Part shown: positions 1 through 24,248 of the stretch, in pieces
Layout of the letters: each line of letters starts with the position of its first letter
How positions within the stretch are numbered: position 1 is the stretch's first letter
From: Arenicellales bacterium
Lineage (GTDB): Bacteria > Pseudomonadota > Gammaproteobacteria > Arenicellales > JAJDZL01
Length of the DNA stretch: 64,000 nucleotides
NCBI GenBank assembly: GCA_965200765.1
Contig: OZ241380.1
Coordinates: 2,022,288 to 2,086,287 of the forward strand
Reading direction: 5' to 3'
The notes under the pieces: generated by a model
The model's input: only the letters and a program-made list of their open reading frames with translations
Database searches by the model: none
Told to the model about the DNA's origin: nothing
Made by a program: the position numbers and the translations under genes

Positions 1-1034
1 GCTGGCGTGCTCGTACCAAGTAACTCTTTTACGTCATTAACAGATATGATAGGATGCGCATAAAGATGATTCAAAACAATGTGACCGTTTCCAACAATAC
101 GGCCGAAATTCTTTGTGAGCAGCGCTTGATGTTCAATGCGTAATGTAAGAATGTCTCTTGCTGTGACAGTGGCTTGCTCACTTACTTCTGCGACACCTCG
201 GAGAAAGAAGCATAACCATTTCTCCCAAGTACTGGCTTCTCGTATAGATTGTAGTTTCTCGTAGTATTCATCACGATTTTGGTTTAGAAAATCTGAAAGG
301 TAAAGAACGGGATGAAGCAAAACTCTATGCTTACATAGCAATAAAGTAATCAGCAGTCTTCCTAACCGTCCATTGCCATCAACAAATGGATGAATCGTTT
401 CGAATTGTGCATGAATCAGGCCGATTTTAATCAAAAGCGGTAATTTGGAATCACCCTGTATAAATTGTTCCAGTTCAAGGAGCTTTTCTTCAACCAATTC
501 AGGCGGTGGTGGAACAAAATCTGCTTCAAAGAGTTTACAATCTTTTGGTCCTATCCAGTTTTGAATTGTTCGAATCTCACCAGGGTTATATTGCGAGCCT
601 CGCACCTCCCGCAACAATCGTTTGTGGATTCCTCGTATTAACTCAACTGAAATAGAAACATTTTCCAGACGTTTTATCCCATAATTCATGGCTTCTATAT
701 ATCGTATAACTTCATCAACATCTTGGCCGGAACTATGTGGTAAAAGAACTTGTGCTTCTGCGGCTAATACATCATGCAACGAACTTCGAATTCCTTCAAT
801 CCTGTTTGAAAGAACCGCTTCTTTCCGAACATACATGAATACAAAATTATTTTCGTCGGGCAAAGTGTGAATAGACCCATCCAATCGTCCCAGAGCTTGG
901 TCAGCTCTGGAAAGCAACTCCTGAAGTTCTTCAGTAAATTCAACAGGAGGAATGGGAGGTAAGGTGGCTGGAATAAACGCCTTGTATCCTTTCGGTTGGT
1001 CTGCGTAATATCCCGCACGTTGCTGGTTGCTCAT
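1..1034 (-). CDS. Fic family protein (3' end runs off the window; absent from the ORF track)
   Basis: Manual translation from ATG at 1034: MSNQQRAGYYADQPKGYKAFIPATLPP...FVFMYVRKEAVLS...HAQFETIHPFVDGNGRLGRL, the canonical Fic motif HPFxDGNGRxxR. The frame is open to base 1. Confidence 0.92.
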   Translation of the reverse strand, partial: MSNQQRAGYYADQPKGYKAFIPATLPPIPPVEFTEELQELLSRADQALGRLDGSIHTLPDENNFVFMYVRKEAVLSNRIEGIRSSLHDVLAAEAQVLLPHSSGQDVDEVIRYIEAMNYGIKRLENVSISVELIRGIHKRLLREVRGSQYNPGEIRTIQNWIGPKDCKLFEADFVPPPPELVEEKLLELEQFIQGDSKLPLLIKIGLIHAQFETIHPFVDGNGRLGRLLITLLLCKHRVLLHPVLYLSDFLNQNRDEYYEKLQSIREASTWEKWLCFFLRGVAEVSEQATVTARDILTLRIEHQALLTKNFGRIVGNGHIVLNHLYAHPIISVNDVKELLGTSTP

Positions 1035-1074
1035 TGTCAAAATTCCAATTTTAACTACAATTCAATTAAGGCTT

Positions 1075-1548
1075 TATTATGGAAGCACACCCGACCCATA
1101 GTAAAGGCTGCCTTCATCATGGAAGCACACCCGACCCATAGTAAAGGCTGCCTTCATCATGGAAGACCATCCGACCCATAGTAAAGGCTGCCTTCATCAT
1201 GGAAGACCATCCGACCCATAGTAAAGGCTGCCTTCATCATGGAAGACCATCCGCTCCATAGTAAAGGCTGCCTTTATCATGGAAGTCCATTCGCTCCATA
1301 GTAAAGGCTGCCTTTATCATGGAAGACCATCCGACCCATAGTAAAGGCTGCCTTCATCATGGCAGTTCATTCGCTCCATAGTAAAGGCTGCCTTCATCAT
1401 GGAAGTTCATCCGCTCCATAGTAAAGGCTGCCTTCATCATGGCAGTTCATCCGCTCCATAGTAAAGGCTGCCTTCATCATGGCAGTTCATCCGCTCCATA
1501 GTAAAGGCTGCCTTCATCATGGCAGTTCATCCGACCCATAGTAAAGGC
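1075..1548. repeat. Non-coding tandem repeat, 40-bp period, about 12 units: 27-bp near-invariant dyad plus 13-bp variable linker
   Basis: CCATAGTAAAGGC starts at 1096, 1136, ... 1536. Core is CCATAGTAAAGGCTGCCTTYATCATGG; linkers range from AAGCACACCCGAC to CAGTTCATCCGCT. Confidence 0.97.
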
Positions 1549-1740
1549 AGGTGTGATCACAGGAGTCCCTCAGCTCAGATACTCATCTTTGCTTGAAACA
1601 TCCTGTCCATTCGACCATCATCCCGTCCCTCCAATCTCAATCCGACACCTGAATTGGAATGATTTTTCCTGTACTCCACTCCAAATATTTTAGAATAAAA
1701 CAGTTTCTGAAATTTTTTCATCAACTGGAATCTTTGAATC

Positions 1741-2652
1741 ATGTGTGGAATTGTAGGCTTGTACATCAAAAATCCGGATTTCGAACATCGCCTGGGCGAG
1801 TTCGTGTCAGACATGCTGATTGAAATGAGTGAACGCGGTCCGGACAGTGCCGGCTTGGCAGTCTATCGTGACCCCGCACCAACCGGCGGCTCAAAGGTGT
1901 CTTTGTATAGTGTACAGGAAAACGAAAACTGGGCCCATCGCGCCGATCAAATCTCCCGGCACTTCGATGCAGAATTCTCCTTCAAGGTGTTTGCCAGCCA
2001 CGCGGTCATGGTCAGCAAAGTACCAGCCCAGCAAGCCGAACAGTGGATGCGCAATGAATGGCCCGAACTGCGGATTATGAGCGTTGGCGAATCCATTGAA
2101 ATTTTCAAGGAAAAAGGCAATCCCAATGATGTCGTGGAAAAATTCAACTTTCGAAGCTTTTCCGGACAACATGCTGTGGCCCATACAAGAATGGCAACAG
2201 AAAGTGCAGTAACAACCGAGCATTCACATCCGTTTTCAACCGGACTGGACTTGTGTCTGGTACATAATGGCTCATTGTCCAACCACAACCAGCTACGGCG
2301 CGAATTGATTCGGGAAGGCCTCAACTTCGAGACTGACAACGACAGTGAAGTGGCCGCCGGATTTTTGACATGGAGATTACGCCAGGGCGAATCTGTAGAA
2401 GAAGCCTTGAACACTTCACTGAAGCACCTCGACGGTTTCTATACATTCGCAGTGGGTTCAAAATCCGGATTTTCTGTATTGCGGGATCCGATTGCCTGCA
2501 AGCCGGCAGTACTGGCCGAAAACGATGACTGGGTCGCCATGGCCTCCGAATACCGCGCCATTGCAAAACTGCCGAATGCCAAGGAAGCGACCAGATGGGA
2601 ACCGGAACCCGAACAGATTTATAGCTGGGACCACCAATCGGAAGTACACTGA
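1741..2652 (+). CDS. glxB: Class II glutamine amidotransferase, N-methylglutamate synthase subunit A (GlxB/MgsA)
   Basis: N-terminal MCGIVG (Ntn Cys), HTRMATES, VHNGSLSN and ETDNDSEV motifs; operon with glxC/glxD. Confidence 0.9.
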   Translation: MCGIVGLYIKNPDFEHRLGEFVSDMLIEMSERGPDSAGLAVYRDPAPTGGSKVSLYSVQENENWAHRADQISRHFDAEFSFKVFASHAVMVSKVPAQQAEQWMRNEWPELRIMSVGESIEIFKEKGNPNDVVEKFNFRSFSGQHAVAHTRMATESAVTTEHSHPFSTGLDLCLVHNGSLSNHNQLRRELIREGLNFETDNDSEVAAGFLTWRLRQGESVEEALNTSLKHLDGFYTFAVGSKSGFSVLRDPIACKPAVLAENDDWVAMASEYRAIAKLPNAKEATRWEPEPEQIYSWDHQSEVH

Positions 2653-3335
2653 TGACCAACCGCCTGGACTTGGCAACGGAATCGCTTCGCCAAGTGAATT
2701 CAACACTTCACAGCCCGAGCGATTGGAAAGAATTTGAGATTATTCACCCGAAAGGTGTTCATTCCTTGGCCGCGGGTCTCAATGCCACAATTCAGGTGAA
2801 TGTTGACGGCCATGTTGGTTATTACTGTGCTGGCATGAACCAGCTCGCAAGCATCAGAATAGACGGAAATGCAGGTCCTGGTCTCGCTGAAAACATGATC
2901 TCCGGGGAAGTCGTGGTAACGGGCAATGCTTCGCAATATGCCGGTGCCTCGGGGCACGGCGGACTTCTGGTGATACATGGCAACGCGAGTTCGCGTTGCG
3001 GTATATCCATGAAAGGCATCGATATCGTCGTCGGTGGTTCCGTTGGGCATTTCAGCGCCTTCATGGCGCAAAAAGGACGATTGGTGATTTGCGGCGACGC
3101 ATCAAACGACTTGGGCGATTCAATCTACGAAGCACAACTGTTTGTGCGTGGCAAGGTAGCCCGGCTCGGTTCGGACTGCATTGAAAAGGAAATGCGGCCG
3201 GAACATCTGGAACAACTTCAAATACTGCTTGACAAAGCAAAGATGAAGTACTCAGCCAAAGAATTTCGCAGATATGGTTCTGCGCGAAAATTGTACAACT
3301 TCAATATAGACAATGCCGATGCCATCACAGGATAA
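2652..3335 (+). CDS. glxC: GXGXG-motif protein, N-methylglutamate synthase subunit B (GlxC/MgsB)
   Basis: Repeated G-x-x-G beta-helix motifs (GHVGYYCAGMN, GNAGPGLAENM, GNASSRCGISMKG); start overlaps the upstream stop. Confidence 0.9.
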   Translation: MTNRLDLATESLRQVNSTLHSPSDWKEFEIIHPKGVHSLAAGLNATIQVNVDGHVGYYCAGMNQLASIRIDGNAGPGLAENMISGEVVVTGNASQYAGASGHGGLLVIHGNASSRCGISMKGIDIVVGGSVGHFSAFMAQKGRLVICGDASNDLGDSIYEAQLFVRGKVARLGSDCIEKEMRPEHLEQLQILLDKAKMKYSAKEFRRYGSARKLYNFNIDNADAITG

Positions 3336-19519: not shown

Positions 19520-21973
19520 ATGAAAAATTTCACGAAACGGTGCTTGATTGCCCATGCAATTGCTTTGCTACTGCTTACGATCAGTGCTTGCGGGGGTGGC
19601 GGAGGCACCACTGTCAATCCGCCCACTACCCCGACGAATCCGCCCACTACACCGACGAATCCGCCCACTACACCAACGGATCCGCCCACTACACCAACGG
19701 ATCCGCCCACTACACCAACGGATCCGCCCACTACACCAACGGATCCGCCCACTACACCAACGGATCCACCCACTGCTCCAACAGCAATCGATATCAGACT
19801 ACGACTACAGAATCAGCCTGAGTTGGAGAAGGTAAATGCCCGTGAGGCATATGAACGGAGATTGAATGGTCAAGGGGTTAGGATTGGCATCCAGGATGAC
19901 TTTGTTGACTTCAAAAATGCCGAGTTTTCTGGAAGAATCAGTTTTGAACAGGCAAGTTTAACCTACTGGATTCCTCCGAGAACTGTGCGGCCTTCGCCCG
20001 GTGCACGAATTATTGTTGTACCAACAGTAAATGATGTTGTATCCAGAGCGCGCCAATTCATCGAAGAAGAAGGTTATCCAAGACTAAACAACTCGGTGTT
20101 CATTAGAGTTGCCAGCGAAGCTTCGTACTATGAAATCCCAGCATTCGGCCAACGAAATATGAACAATGTGATGTTGCGCACGCATGGTACACAAGTTGCA
20201 TCAGTAGCTGCTGGCCGGACGTTGGGGGTAGCACCAGGAGCAACAATTGTGCCACTTGCAACGCCATTGGATTCCGACCTTGAAAACCAACGAGTGCTAG
20301 CAGAAGATTGGCGTGGGACTATTGAAGTGATCAAAAATCCCCCTGTTGACTTCAGCCAAAGTGATATTGCTGGATTTGACCAGCGGGTAGCGGGTCAGCT
20401 CAATGAATTTTATCGCGGCTTCCATGTAATCAACCGGTCTTATGGTCCAACCCTCGGCCCAGAGGCGAGCATAAAAGTAATTTATGACCGACAAGCAAGT
20501 GAGCGAGTCTATGAAGAATGGTTACGGACGAACCTACCCCAATACTACCGGGCATTTACGCAACAATCACTGCCAGACCGAGAAAAAACTGTGATTGTGT
20601 ATGCTGCTGGCAATGATGGACTTCCAGTACCGCATGTTGTCGCCAGCCGTGCACACAGAATCCCCAGTTTGCGCGGACTTCGACTCGCTGTGGTAGGCAT
20701 CGGGTCAAATGGCGTAATTCACTCCAGGTCAAACCGTTGCGGTACTTTACCAGATGATTGGCAAAGCACACGCGATGGTCGTCACTATTGTCTTGCCGCC
20801 CCGTACAGTGTTAATACAACCCACCCTCAAACAGGGGCACGGACTACTGTAGAAGGCACATCATTCTCAGCACCTATGGTGAGCGGCGGCATTGCATTGG
20901 TTCTCCAACAATTCCGTAACCAGTTAACTCCACGCCAAGCAGCATTGCGGGTAGTCAATACTGCAGACAATACTGGAAGATATCGCGACACCAGTATATA
21001 TGGCGCCGGTTTGCTCAACCTTGCGGCGGCAACAAGCCCAATTGGCGAACTCCGCACAGGTACTAAGACAGTACAATCATCTCTTGCTGGCACAACTCTA
21101 CGAACACCCGCGGCTTGGGGAAATGTCGCAAATCGTATGAACGGAATAGAAATTACAGCCTTCGATGACTATAACGCTCCATTTTGGTTTGAACCGAAAC
21201 ATCTCATCAAATTTTCACGAATTTCCGGGCACTCCATTGTTCCGGAAACATATCACACTACCAGTTGGAAATCCGGACCGCTGAATTATCTCAATTGGAC
21301 AAGATTGGACAACACAACACTGCTTGAGTCGAATGAGATGCAATTCGCGACCGGATTCGAAAATTATGATAATGATTCACGCACTGGTATGTTGAATACT
21401 ATGGGTATTTCGATGAAGCCATTCGGAAACAGTATTCGTACTGGTTTTATTACCGAGAACAACAGCAATCATGGTGCCAAGCCTTTCGGAGCATTTGGAA
21501 AAAATGTCAAATCCAACATGGTTTGGATTGAAGGCAGTAAAAATTGGAGATTAAAAAAGAACTCTCGCTGGTCTTTAAGTGCTTCAGGTCTCATCGCACT
21601 GGGCCAACCTCGCTACGAAGCAGGATCAATGTTTGAAGCAAGTGAGTCTATTTATTCTGCCGCAAACTTAGCTTTGGAAAACAAATCTCGCAAGCACCGC
21701 AACCAATTTACAATCAGTCAATCCCTGAGAGCAGAATCTGGGCAAGGAATACTTCGCTATCCTACGGGTCGTACGCCAGAAGGTACGCGACTATACTCAG
21801 AAGGCAGATTTCCGTTGGAACCGGAAGCAAGAGAGATCAAACTTGGTTATAGACATGACAGAACATTAGGGAATGGAATGCTTGCCTTTGAAATTTCGCA
21901 TATCCAAAATGCAGGACATACTCGAGACAATGAAGACACAGCAGTAGGTGTTGCTTTTCGGCTTGTTTGGTGA
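19520..21973 (+). CDS. Secreted S8 (subtilisin-like) serine protease with lipoprotein-type signal, Pro/Thr linker and probable C-terminal beta domain
   Basis: Lipobox ISA-C; catalytic motifs IQDD (D), THGTQVA (H), AAGNDG (N), GTSFSAPMVSG (S); terminal VAFRLVW. Confidence 0.9.
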   Translation: MKNFTKRCLIAHAIALLLLTISACGGGGGTTVNPPTTPTNPPTTPTNPPTTPTDPPTTPTDPPTTPTDPPTTPTDPPTTPTDPPTAPTAIDIRLRLQNQPELEKVNAREAYERRLNGQGVRIGIQDDFVDFKNAEFSGRISFEQASLTYWIPPRTVRPSPGARIIVVPTVNDVVSRARQFIEEEGYPRLNNSVFIRVASEASYYEIPAFGQRNMNNVMLRTHGTQVASVAAGRTLGVAPGATIVPLATPLDSDLENQRVLAEDWRGTIEVIKNPPVDFSQSDIAGFDQRVAGQLNEFYRGFHVINRSYGPTLGPEASIKVIYDRQASERVYEEWLRTNLPQYYRAFTQQSLPDREKTVIVYAAGNDGLPVPHVVASRAHRIPSLRGLRLAVVGIGSNGVIHSRSNRCGTLPDDWQSTRDGRHYCLAAPYSVNTTHPQTGARTTVEGTSFSAPMVSGGIALVLQQFRNQLTPRQAALRVVNTADNTGRYRDTSIYGAGLLNLAAATSPIGELRTGTKTVQSSLAGTTLRTPAAWGNVANRMNGIEITAFDDYNAPFWFEPKHLIKFSRISGHSIVPETYHTTSWKSGPLNYLNWTRLDNTTLLESNEMQFATGFENYDNDSRTGMLNTMGISMKPFGNSIRTGFITENNSNHGAKPFGAFGKNVKSNMVWIEGSKNWRLKKNSRWSLSASGLIALGQPRYEAGSMFEASESIYSAANLALENKSRKHRNQFTISQSLRAESGQGILRYPTGRTPEGTRLYSEGRFPLEPEAREIKLGYRHDRTLGNGMLAFEISHIQNAGHTRDNEDTAVGVAFRLVW
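19616..19783 (+). repeat. In-frame 21-bp VNTR, 8 units, encoding (N/D)PPTTPT
   Basis: RATCCGCCCACTACACCRACG units at 19616, 19637, ... 19763. Confidence 0.97.
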
Positions 21974-22048: not shown

Positions 22049-24248
22049 GGTTCAATGAGGCCGCCGCTGATTAGCGGCGGAAATCCAGCTCGGCAATTGA
22101 CGGACCCGAAACAATCGACTCACTTCAATGAGGCCGCCGCTAATTAGCAGCGGAAATCCCCAGTTTTGCTATCTACTGGCGAGCGAATACCGCTGCTTCA
22201 ATGAGGCCGCCGCTAATTAGCAGCGGAAATTTTTTAGCATCTGCAATTCTTGCCACCGGGCTTTTAAGCTTCAATGAGGCCGCCGCTAATTAGCAGCGGA
22301 AATCCCGCATGGAATCGCGCGGGGGGCGCAACGGCGGCGCTTCAATGAGGCCGCCGCTAATTAGCAGCGGAAATGACTACGTGCAGGTCAGTCGGACCGG
22401 CGACGGCTACGCTTCAATGAGGCCGCCGCTAATTAGCAGCGGAAATATTAATCGCAAGAATGTTGCGGCACTGCGCATAAGAACAGCTTCAATGAGGCCG
22501 CCGCTAATTAGCAGCGGAAATGACGCGGCCAATGACGACGGCAATCTCGTATTCAGCGTGCTTCAATGAGGCCGCCGCTAATTAGCAGCGGAAATTTGCT
22601 TGTATGGCTTTCTGCAGTTAATTTAATTGCATCGCTTCAATGAGGCCGCCGCTAATTAGCAGCGGAAATCCTTATGCTGACTGAATACAAGGCTACCGTT
22701 TTCGAGGCTTCAATGAGGCCGCCGCTAATTAGCAGCGGAAATCCTTTGTGGGTAGAAGATGATTGGGCGGATGATTTAGCTTCAATGAGGCCGCCGCTAA
22801 TTAGCAGCGGAAATCTTTTTTCTTGAACCAGTCCCAATAAGTAACAACAGTTAGCTTCAATGAGGCCGCCGCTAATTAGCAGCGGAAATTTCTGCTATAC
22901 TGGATTCTGTCGGTGGCGGCCTCATTGCTTCAATGAGGCCGCCGCTAATTAGCAGCGGAAATTTCTGCTATACTGGATTCTGTCGGTGGCGGCCTCATTG
23001 CTTCAATGAGGCCGCCGCTAATTAGCAGCGGAAATGTAGCGTTGTCCAGTTCAGTCAATTGTCATCCTCCGCGCTTCAATGAGGCCGCCGCTAATTAGCA
23101 GCGGAAATTTTGATTGCCCCTGATTTGCCGATAGCACTGCGTCTTGCTTCAATGAGGCCGCCGCTAATTAGCAGCGGAAATCAAGCCGTCGTTTTCGTCG
23201 ATGCTCATCGCGGCTTTGCTTCAATGAGGCCGCCGCTAATTAGCAGCGGAAATCTGGCGGCTCTGGCGGAGGCGGTGGACTTAGTGCATCGGCTTCAATG
23301 AGGCCGCCGCTAATTAGCAGCGGAAATTTTTTCTACCTTCCGAGTAAATCGCCTAAATATTTCTTGCTTCAATGAGGCCGCCGCTAATTAATGTCGTCAG
23401 CAGCGGAAATGTCGTCATGCTTGCCTTCCCTTTCGCCGCTGGCCCGGCTTCAATGAGGCCGCCGCTAATTAGCAGCGGAAATGTCGCTGGCCCGGCTTCA
23501 ATGAGGCCGCCGCTAATTCGCAGCGGAAATTCAATCGACTTCGGCTGGCTATCGCTTCAATGAGGCCGCCGCTAATTAGCAGCGGAAATATGTTTTCAGA
23601 AGGTTTGGATGCCATTGTATTTTTTAGCTTCAATGAGGCCGCCGCTAATTAGCAGCGGAAATTATGATCGTTTCGTGCAAGATAACCATGGATACAATGC
23701 TTCAATGAGGCCGCCGCTAATTAGCAGCGGAAATCCAAGCTGCTGCTTGAAACCAATCCTCACATGTTGCAGCTTCAATGAGGCCGCCGCTAATTAGCAG
23801 CGGAAATTCGGCGTATCCTCGCGCGGCGTAGGTTCGGTGACCGAGCAGCTTCAATGAGGCCGCCGCTAATTAGCAGCGGAAATCTGGCATATTCAGATGT
23901 AGGAAGAGATAGAACTCTAGCTTCAATGAGGCCGCCGCTAATTAGCAGCGGAAATTTCCATTGCAATCGATAGCCAAGCGTTTGAAACCTATGCTTCAAT
24001 GAGGCCGCCGCTAATTAGCAGCGGAAATCTGACTGACCTAATGCAGCACTACCTATTTCAAGTTGCTTCAATGAGGCCGCCGCTAATTAGCAGCGGAAAT
24101 AGAATTATGATCAACGCTCAAGAACCGAAAAAAATTGCGCTTCAATGAGGCCGCCGCTAATTAGCAGCGGAAATTCGTTGCAAATGATGAAACGGAAAAA
24201 ATAACAGTCAGCGCTTCAATGAGGCCGCCGCTAATTAGCAGCGGAAAT
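22049..24248 (-). CRISPR. CRISPR array, 31 repeats and 30 spacers; 36-bp repeat ATTTCCGCTGCTAATTAGCGGCGGCCTCATTGAAGC in the transcribed orientation
   Basis: Counted manually. Spacers are 35-40 nt except one of 12 and one of 23. The degenerate repeat at 22049 marks the trailer; the ATTGAAGC 3' end and the leader next to cas2 indicate minus-strand transcription. Confidence 0.98.

Follow-up and report, generated by a model that had tools for sequence, protein, structure and literature searches.

Two Fic proteins are known to bind their own promoters. CccR of Yersinia pseudotuberculosis (PDB 7XUX) represses its own promoter and requires dimerization to do so, acting at an operator of two inverted 10-bp boxes, AGATAATCAT-N26-ATGATAATCT, which are located near the -35 and -10 elements (PMC9755527). 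SoFic of Shewanella oneidensis (MloA, SO_4266; PDB 3EQX and 9TCH), catalogued by PADLOC as a single-gene anti-phage system, binds in a sequence-specific manner, as a dimer and not as a monomer, to the 100-bp stretch that precedes its own start codon, the sites themselves being left undefined by the authors (bioRxiv 10.64898/2026.07.09.737422). In this enzyme, dimerization and DNA binding control catalysis, and they do so also in CbFic2, where binding to DNA induces both dimerization and activity (PMC10628234). The Sofic system of Escherichia coli includes, in addition, a small antitoxin-type partner gene, AS1 (PMC12249575). Autoregulatory control of the kind discussed below is known, whereas the amplification of the controlling site to between twelve and seventeen copies is unusual; a literature search found no report of Fic enzymes with operator arrays that are phased or amplified.

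A tandem array upstream of a Fic gene

The window analysed here is a stretch of 64,000 nucleotides from the genome of a bacterium of the order Arenicellales (contig OZ241380.1). Close to its left edge, twelve non-coding 40-bp units are arranged head to tail between a Fic gene and a divergent gene for a GlxB-like class II glutamine amidotransferase (Table 1). Tandem Repeats Finder delimits the array at 1072-1548, with a period of 40, 11.9 copies, 94% matches, no indels and a score of 695. Each unit is composed of two inverted 13-bp half-sites, or arms, with the consensus CCATnnTAAAGGC. A 27-bp dyad, CCATAGTAAAGGCTGCCTTYATCATGG, recurs 11 times at exact 40-bp steps, where 100 shuffles give an expectation of zero, and a lone half-site is found at each end of the array (GGCTTTATTATGG at 1070-1082 and CCATAGTAAAGGC at 1536-1548). 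The pairing of half-sites can be read in two ways, either across the free 13-bp spacer or abutting across 1 nt. As the array opens with one arm and closes with the other, it comprises twelve complete units of arm, 13-bp spacer and arm, joined by 1 nt, and this is as valid a description as eleven dyads plus two halves. The dyad had originally been taken as the unit; its eleven exact copies are present, but the functional unit may instead be a pair of arms facing each other across the 13-bp linker, because both the array ends and the Planctomycetota relatives described below also point to arms separated by a linker of this kind.

The arms and linkers differ markedly in how they vary. Within the dyad a single position is variable, being C or T, with T in two of the 11 copies. 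Amongst the 11 inner units, at least nine substitution events have occurred in the 13 linker columns compared with one in the other 27 (binomial p = 2.9e-4). Distance between linkers increases with the separation of their units (Spearman 0.60, permutation p = 0.0005), so that neighbours are most alike. The half-sites contain the stop codons TAG-TAA and TGA-TGA, a period of 40 is not divisible by three, and no open reading frame touching the array exceeds 61 aa, for which reasons the array is regarded as non-coding. The original prediction, made from the letters of the sequence, had anticipated twelve 40-bp units, a dyad with one variable position, a left-to-right gradient in the linkers, an absence of coding potential and a location beside Fic and divergent from glxB, and all of these stand. 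The last half-site stops 35 nt short of the Fic ATG (1034, minus strand) and the glxB-like start (1741, plus strand) is 192 bp past the opposite end of the array. The count of 12 out of 13 possible pairs, including G-U, on the Fic-sense strand was likewise reproduced, the other strand forming 11-12 of 13.

Some 60 bp past the distal end of the array, at 1606-1628, GTCCATTCGACCATCATCC resembles a linker followed by the start of an arm and may, from this resemblance, be a decayed extra unit. The window also contains two further types of repeat. CRISPR-like arrays at 22268-23530, with a 36-nt repeat (GCTTCAATGAGGCCGCCGCTAATTAGCAGCGGAAAT) and periods of 72-73, are unrelated to the Fic array. A 21-bp tandem repeat at 19617-19782 (7.9 copies) is coding and specifies PPTTPT(D/N) heptads in an 817-aa protein (ORF 19520-21973), where they directly follow a lipoprotein-like signal.

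Table 1. Features of the Fic locus and its paralog (window coordinates unless indicated)
Feature	Position	Strand	Basis or remarks
Fic gene, ATG at 1034, running off the left edge of the window; 392-394 aa in the genome	1..1034	-	ORF and domain searches
Leader between array and start codon	1035..1068	-	Conserved with the congener; partly with the paralog (AGTTAAAATTGGAA..ACAATG)
Array of twelve 40-bp units	1069..1548	-	Fic-sense unit: GCCTTTACTATGG, 13-nt linker, CCATGATGAAGGC, 1-nt junction
Fic-proximal unit 12, second arm degenerated to CCATAATAAAGCC	1069..1108	-	Consensus scan
Promoter-like hexamers of unit 12	TTTACT 1105-1100; 18-nt spacer; CATAAT 1081-1076	-	Consensus scan, 9/12 matches
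27-bp dyads, n = 11, 0 mismatches	starts 1096, 1136 ... 1496; span 1096..1522	.	Exact matches
glxB-like class II glutamine amidotransferase gene	1741..2652	+	Divergent from the array
Second Fic paralog and its array	G000:C1:435600-438770 (outside the window)		72-86% identity

The Fic protein

The portion of the Fic gene contained in the window lacks the last ~50 residues, which form part of the winged helix. Pfam searches with the protein identify Fic_N and Fic domains and a MarR_2-like stretch at residues 320-363, and the PADLOC model for SoFic matches it with E = 1.2e-112. Its sequence matches in the PDB are SoFic, over residues 27-382, and CccR (E = 8.6e-15). SNRIEG, the inhibitory motif of class II, and the catalytic motif HPFVDGNGRLGR are both present. 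An AlphaFold model was built on the full-length ortholog of a congener, which is 93% identical. This model (pLDDT 90.7) ends in a C-terminal domain with a helix-strand-helix-helix-wing topology and superposes best on 7cb8, a Fic protein of Mycobacterium marinum, and on SoFic (TM 0.77-0.84), followed by CccR (7xux), which is distant (TM about 0.56-0.61), and Coxiella CbFic2 (8cil). On the strength of these matches and of the predicted fold, the gene product is a SoFic-type class II Fic enzyme with a C-terminal winged helix, which, together with an N-terminal dimerization helix, is the domain composition of a Fic-wHTH autoregulator.

Linkage of the array to Fic genes

The whole genome (3.29 Mb, one contig) was searched for the dyad, which was found only in this array and, with three mismatches, in one other place. 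The second place is a diverged array of about 6-8 units, with a 40/80-bp period, that precedes a second Fic paralog. The linkers of the paralog array are unrelated to those of the main array, whilst the arms are kept. At codon 243 the paralog itself is interrupted by a 1.55-kb IS5-like element, which encodes a 458-aa DDE transposase, is present in five copies in the genome and is flanked here by a TACTTA-like target duplication. Amongst 40 related genomes, the dyad is found in only one, that of a congener represented by an Arenicellales MAG, where the orthologous Fic gene (93% identity) lies behind 17 units in which two unit types alternate with an 80-bp period. When metagenome contigs were scanned for exact copies of the dyad, there were no matches. 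Across the genome and its relatives, the dyad is tied to Fic loci only, namely those described here, at the paralog and in the congener. Lone half-sites elsewhere in the genome number 3 and 8, compared with about 4 expected by chance, and a genome-wide search for a broader regulon marked by half-sites found none above this level.

The only homology between the two congeners is in the array, in the Fic gene and in the roughly 125 bp that follow the gene on its 3' side. The gene beyond the congener array is malate-synthase-like rather than glxB, and the array begins about 35 bp past the stop codon of a co-oriented upstream gene. The array therefore belongs to the Fic gene and not to glxB, given that the congener keeps array and Fic together in another context and that the paralog and more distant relatives carry arrays of their own. 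Likewise, as the outer neighbour of the congener array is a different gene, the glxB-like gene is a neighbour in this genome only and lies outside the array-Fic module. Half of the congener units carry uncompensated changes in both arms, such that the arms are complementary at 7/13 positions for the pair flanking the 13-bp linker and at 9/13 for the 1-nt pair. It follows that some of the units may be less than good sites.

The ~125 bp that follow the Fic stop codon, to the left of the window, are kept between both congeners (L013:1380-1500 and L014:1380-1500). They contain a short GC stem and a possible ORF of 22-27 aa (M-HEFKAALCAKLKV...). When an AS1-like gene was sought 3' of Fic, this ORF, of doubtful conservation, was the sole candidate. 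The stretch could represent either a terminator or, by analogy with AS1 in E. coli Sofic, a small partner gene.

A 40-bp phasing across the family

Fic homologues were gathered from the order, from species genomes and from metagenomes, giving about 90 homologous loci. Relatives at 54-62% identity, belonging to other phyla, possess the same box in 1.5-4 units (3.5 in L015, 4 in L016, 2 in L051 from Fibrobacteria and 1.5 in L069), and all four keep the 13-nt arms, 13-nt linker and 1-nt junction. Averaged over seven loci with locus weighting, the information content per position is 1.39 and 1.00 bits in the two arms and 0.43 bits in the linker. Substitutions in relatives are thus concentrated in the linker rather than spread evenly over the unit, as the selection on the dyad that had been suggested at the outset would require.

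The phasing of these sites extends well beyond loci with the same box. Inverted repeats upstream of Fic genes exceed every one of 20 shuffles in 35 of 53 loci, and inverted 9-mers 15-29 bp apart are enriched 10- to 15-fold over shuffles in 69 non-redundant loci. A scan of periods from 15 to 100 bp shows that repeats cluster at 40 bp (13 loci) and 80 bp (9 loci), across several phyla and unrelated box sequences, whilst the set of metagenome loci gives periods of 40, 41, 82 and 70. Distant homologues combine unrelated boxes with the same grammar, and other lineages have palindromes of their own. At Planctomycetota loci, TTATTCCA and TGGAATAA are separated by 16 nt and repeat in 40-bp phase. Four loci of this group and of related metagenome contigs (L045, L046, L074 and L075) have six TTATTCCA...TGGAATAA palindromes within the 250 bp upstream of fic, with spacers alternating between 16 nt and 6-7 nt in about 40-bp phase, an alternation that suggests two binding geometries for one protein.

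The promoter of SoFic can be compared directly, using the sequence given in Table S2 of the preprint. Three direct copies of ATGTCGAT, at 192, 231 and 271, succeed one another there at steps of 39 and 40 bp, and two further copies, at 162 and 242, are inverted. These boxes follow the same alternating, 40-bp-phased grammar and are candidate SoFic half-sites that are absent from the preprint's own description. SoFic resembles the protein and locus studied here in domain order, fold and 40-bp box grammar, but differs in having three direct and two inverted boxes of another sequence (ATGTCGAT) in place of twelve near-identical units.

Site and gene are inherited together, and the sequence of the former shifts with the protein lineage, as the operator of a Fic-wHTH protein would be expected to do. 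Loci grouped by box also differ in the residues of the recognition helix, although this covariation is confounded by phylogeny. Arrays of more than about 6 units are confined to this genus amongst the roughly 90 loci, and high copy number may consequently carry no function of its own.

A candidate self-operator

The array is best explained as a tandemly amplified promoter and operator that serves autorepression by a SoFic-type Fic enzyme, an explanation we regard as probable. The half-sites contain a -35-like TTTACT and a -10-like CATGAT or CATAAT, 18 nt apart. Inner units have CATGAT in the -10-like position and the gene-adjacent unit has CATAAT. In the paralog, the proximal units have TATAAT and CAAAAT whereas the inner units are without a usable -10, and an improved -10-like hexamer is also seen in the proximal units of the congener. 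The Fic-proximal unit is thus, by consensus match, the probable working promoter. Inverted half-sites that stand 35 nt upstream of the ATG and overlap hexamers recognized as promoter-like by their consensus have the placement of an operator.

In the proposed mechanism, the Fic protein would dimerize through its N-terminal helix and the dimer would dock its two C-terminal winged-helix domains on a pair of half-sites. The natural unit under this explanation would be arm, 13-bp spacer and arm. One dimer could span the arms either across the 13-nt linker, with 26 bp from centre to centre, or across the 1-nt junction, with 14 bp; both geometries of arm pair are present in relatives. Occupation of the proximal unit, which has the best -10, would block RNA polymerase, and the AMP-transferase would in this way limit its own expression. 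The eleven further units may allow cooperative, high-capacity binding, which would tighten repression and act as a buffer that titrates the protein. The array would have grown by unequal recombination or slippage, a process that would also explain the gradient of linker variants.

Comparison with described operators supports this proposal in kind and sets the locus apart in its extent. CccR, like the protein encoded here, couples a Fic domain to a C-terminal DNA-binding domain and exerts dimeric self-repression through inverted boxes placed on the -35 and -10 elements. Its right-hand box, ATGATAATCT, agrees with the core of the arm, ATGATAAAGG, at 7/10 positions and in the same inward orientation, a similarity that may be due to chance. 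Unlike the array, the CccR operator is a single 46-bp element, with 10-bp boxes 26 bp apart and no phasing; moreover, the CccR dimer is described as back-to-back and different from that of SoFic, and the protein studied here is only a distant relative (E and TM values above). Iterated operators and centromere-like arrays bound by small dimers, for example those of ParR-parC and AbiEi (PMC3985639), likewise have many phased short sites; they load many dimers cooperatively and autoregulate the adjacent operon, as is proposed here. However, partition and AbiE genes are absent from this locus, and here the binding domain is fused to an enzyme.

The original prediction had left a choice between a protein-binding array, in the form of an operator, iteron or centromere, and a multi-hairpin RNA. 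The operator option is now well supported, since the array travels with Fic, its arms are conserved over its linkers, the protein has a winged-helix domain and two relatives bind their own promoters. The iteron and centromere options have found no support, and the RNA option is disfavoured for reasons given below.

Alternative explanations

The first alternative accepts a real operator but assigns no role to its multiplication. A neutral minisatellite would have expanded from an ancestor of 1.5-4 units, leaving the extra copies idle, and the uniformity of the arms would reflect recent homogenization. The 94% likeness of the units, a gradient between neighbouring linkers that is typical of local duplication, a copy number that differs between congeners (12 vs 17) and the lack of any other lineage with more than about 6 units amongst about 90 loci are all consistent with such an expansion. 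Nevertheless, substitutions within the array avoid the arms (p = 2.9e-4, above), multi-copy 40-bp phasing is found family-wide, and the genus has three separate multi-copy arrays, one of which lies at a diverged paralog and has kept its arms amongst unrelated linkers. The existence of these three arrays indicates that the multi-copy state is old and maintained, and neutral expansion is considered rather unlikely.

A second proposal would give the copy number a more elaborate purpose. The strict 40-bp phasing, which is shared across phyla, and its extension here to 12-17 units could reflect polymerization of SoFic-type dimers along the array into a nucleoprotein filament. Such a depot, of some two dozen DNA-bound dimeric toxin molecules, would set the threshold for release or activation of the AMP-transferase under phage attack. 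This extension is viewed as unlikely.

A third explanation places the function in RNA. Transcription in the Fic sense would produce a structured leader or a separate repeat RNA, acting in the manner of a type III antitoxin or as a translational regulator. In the type III toxin-antitoxin systems ToxIN, CptIN and TenpIN, the repeats constitute an RNA antitoxin that is cut by a ToxN-type endoribonuclease, and a terminator precedes the toxin gene. The locus shares with these systems a tandem run of direct repeats, of about 36-45 nt, that directly precedes a gene for a toxin or for abortive infection and has the same orientation as that gene. Furthermore, in this genome the Fic-sense RNA is better folded than its shuffles (z = -3.8 and -5.2), each hairpin having 12/13 pairs, and the inner units would yield repeat-containing transcripts were they to fire as promoters. 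In relatives, these folding properties decay or change strand. The better-pairing strand flips in the congener, where the sense strand forms 10/13 pairs (z = -1.8) and the antisense strand 11-12/13 (z = -2.7), and the changes in the congener arms are uncompensated. In the paralog and L016, pairing falls to 6-10/13 even though the sequence of each arm is kept. It is this flip in strand preference, coupled with the decay of pairing, that disfavours an RNA function, which is judged quite improbable. The arms are, in addition, 16 nt apart in Planctomycetota and 21-22 nt apart in the SoFic promoter, a poor geometry for hairpins, and a search of window positions 1-3000 at a permissive E-value gave no Rfam match. 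A consensus scan recovered neither a terminator separating the array from the gene nor a promoter beyond the far end of the array. The toxin does not belong to the ToxN-like RNases and, being a class II Fic, has an inhibitory helix of its own.

Membership of a type III toxin-antitoxin system was rejected on related grounds. The gene encodes a Fic AMP-transferase and not an endoribonuclease of the ToxN/AbiQ type, no terminator is found at 1034-1070 and no Fic-sense promoter lies distal to the array. Compensatory changes on one strand are absent from the congener, the paralog and L016; conservation tracks the DNA half-sites over RNA pairing. Terminator-like matches within the array, with 5-bp stems and poor T tails, were judged to be artefacts of the dyad.

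It is very unlikely that the array serves some other protein or process, such as a nucleoid or partition protein, an iteron origin, the recombination site of a mobile module, a roadblock or an insulator. The array, Fic and about 125 bp 3' do have different surroundings in each congener, as a mobile module would, and the position of the congener array, about 35 bp past a co-oriented gene, would suit some of these roles; however, the module has no rep, par, integrase or transposase gene beside it, genomic half-sites are at chance level (3 and 8 vs about 4 expected) and the box sequence shifts with the Fic lineage across phyla, which makes the Fic protein itself the likely partner. Known classes of repeat were also rejected: the 13-nt linkers are variants of one another and not the unique spacers of about 26-72 bp of a CRISPR array; dispersed repeats of the REP/BIME or MITE type are at odds with a dyad confined to two Fic loci and half-sites at chance level; and an iteron origin or partition centromere would have rep or par genes beside it, whereas the array is flanked by Fic and an amidotransferase gene in this genome and has a malate-synthase-like neighbour in the congener.

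Implications for SoFic systems

SoFic is a widespread single-gene anti-phage system, and a self-operator of the kind proposed here touches on the question of how such a system is silenced and triggered. Together with its relatives, the locus yields a readable half-site, CCATnnTAAAGGC, and a rule that applies across the family: inverted boxes lie in 40-bp phase, which also agrees with the SoFic promoter fragment already published. Unit numbers of 1.5, 2, 4, about 7, 12 and 17 form a natural series that offers a handle on how the number of sites relates to repression, toxin buffering and defence. If many copies matter, DNA occupancy would be linked to the control of a toxic enzyme.
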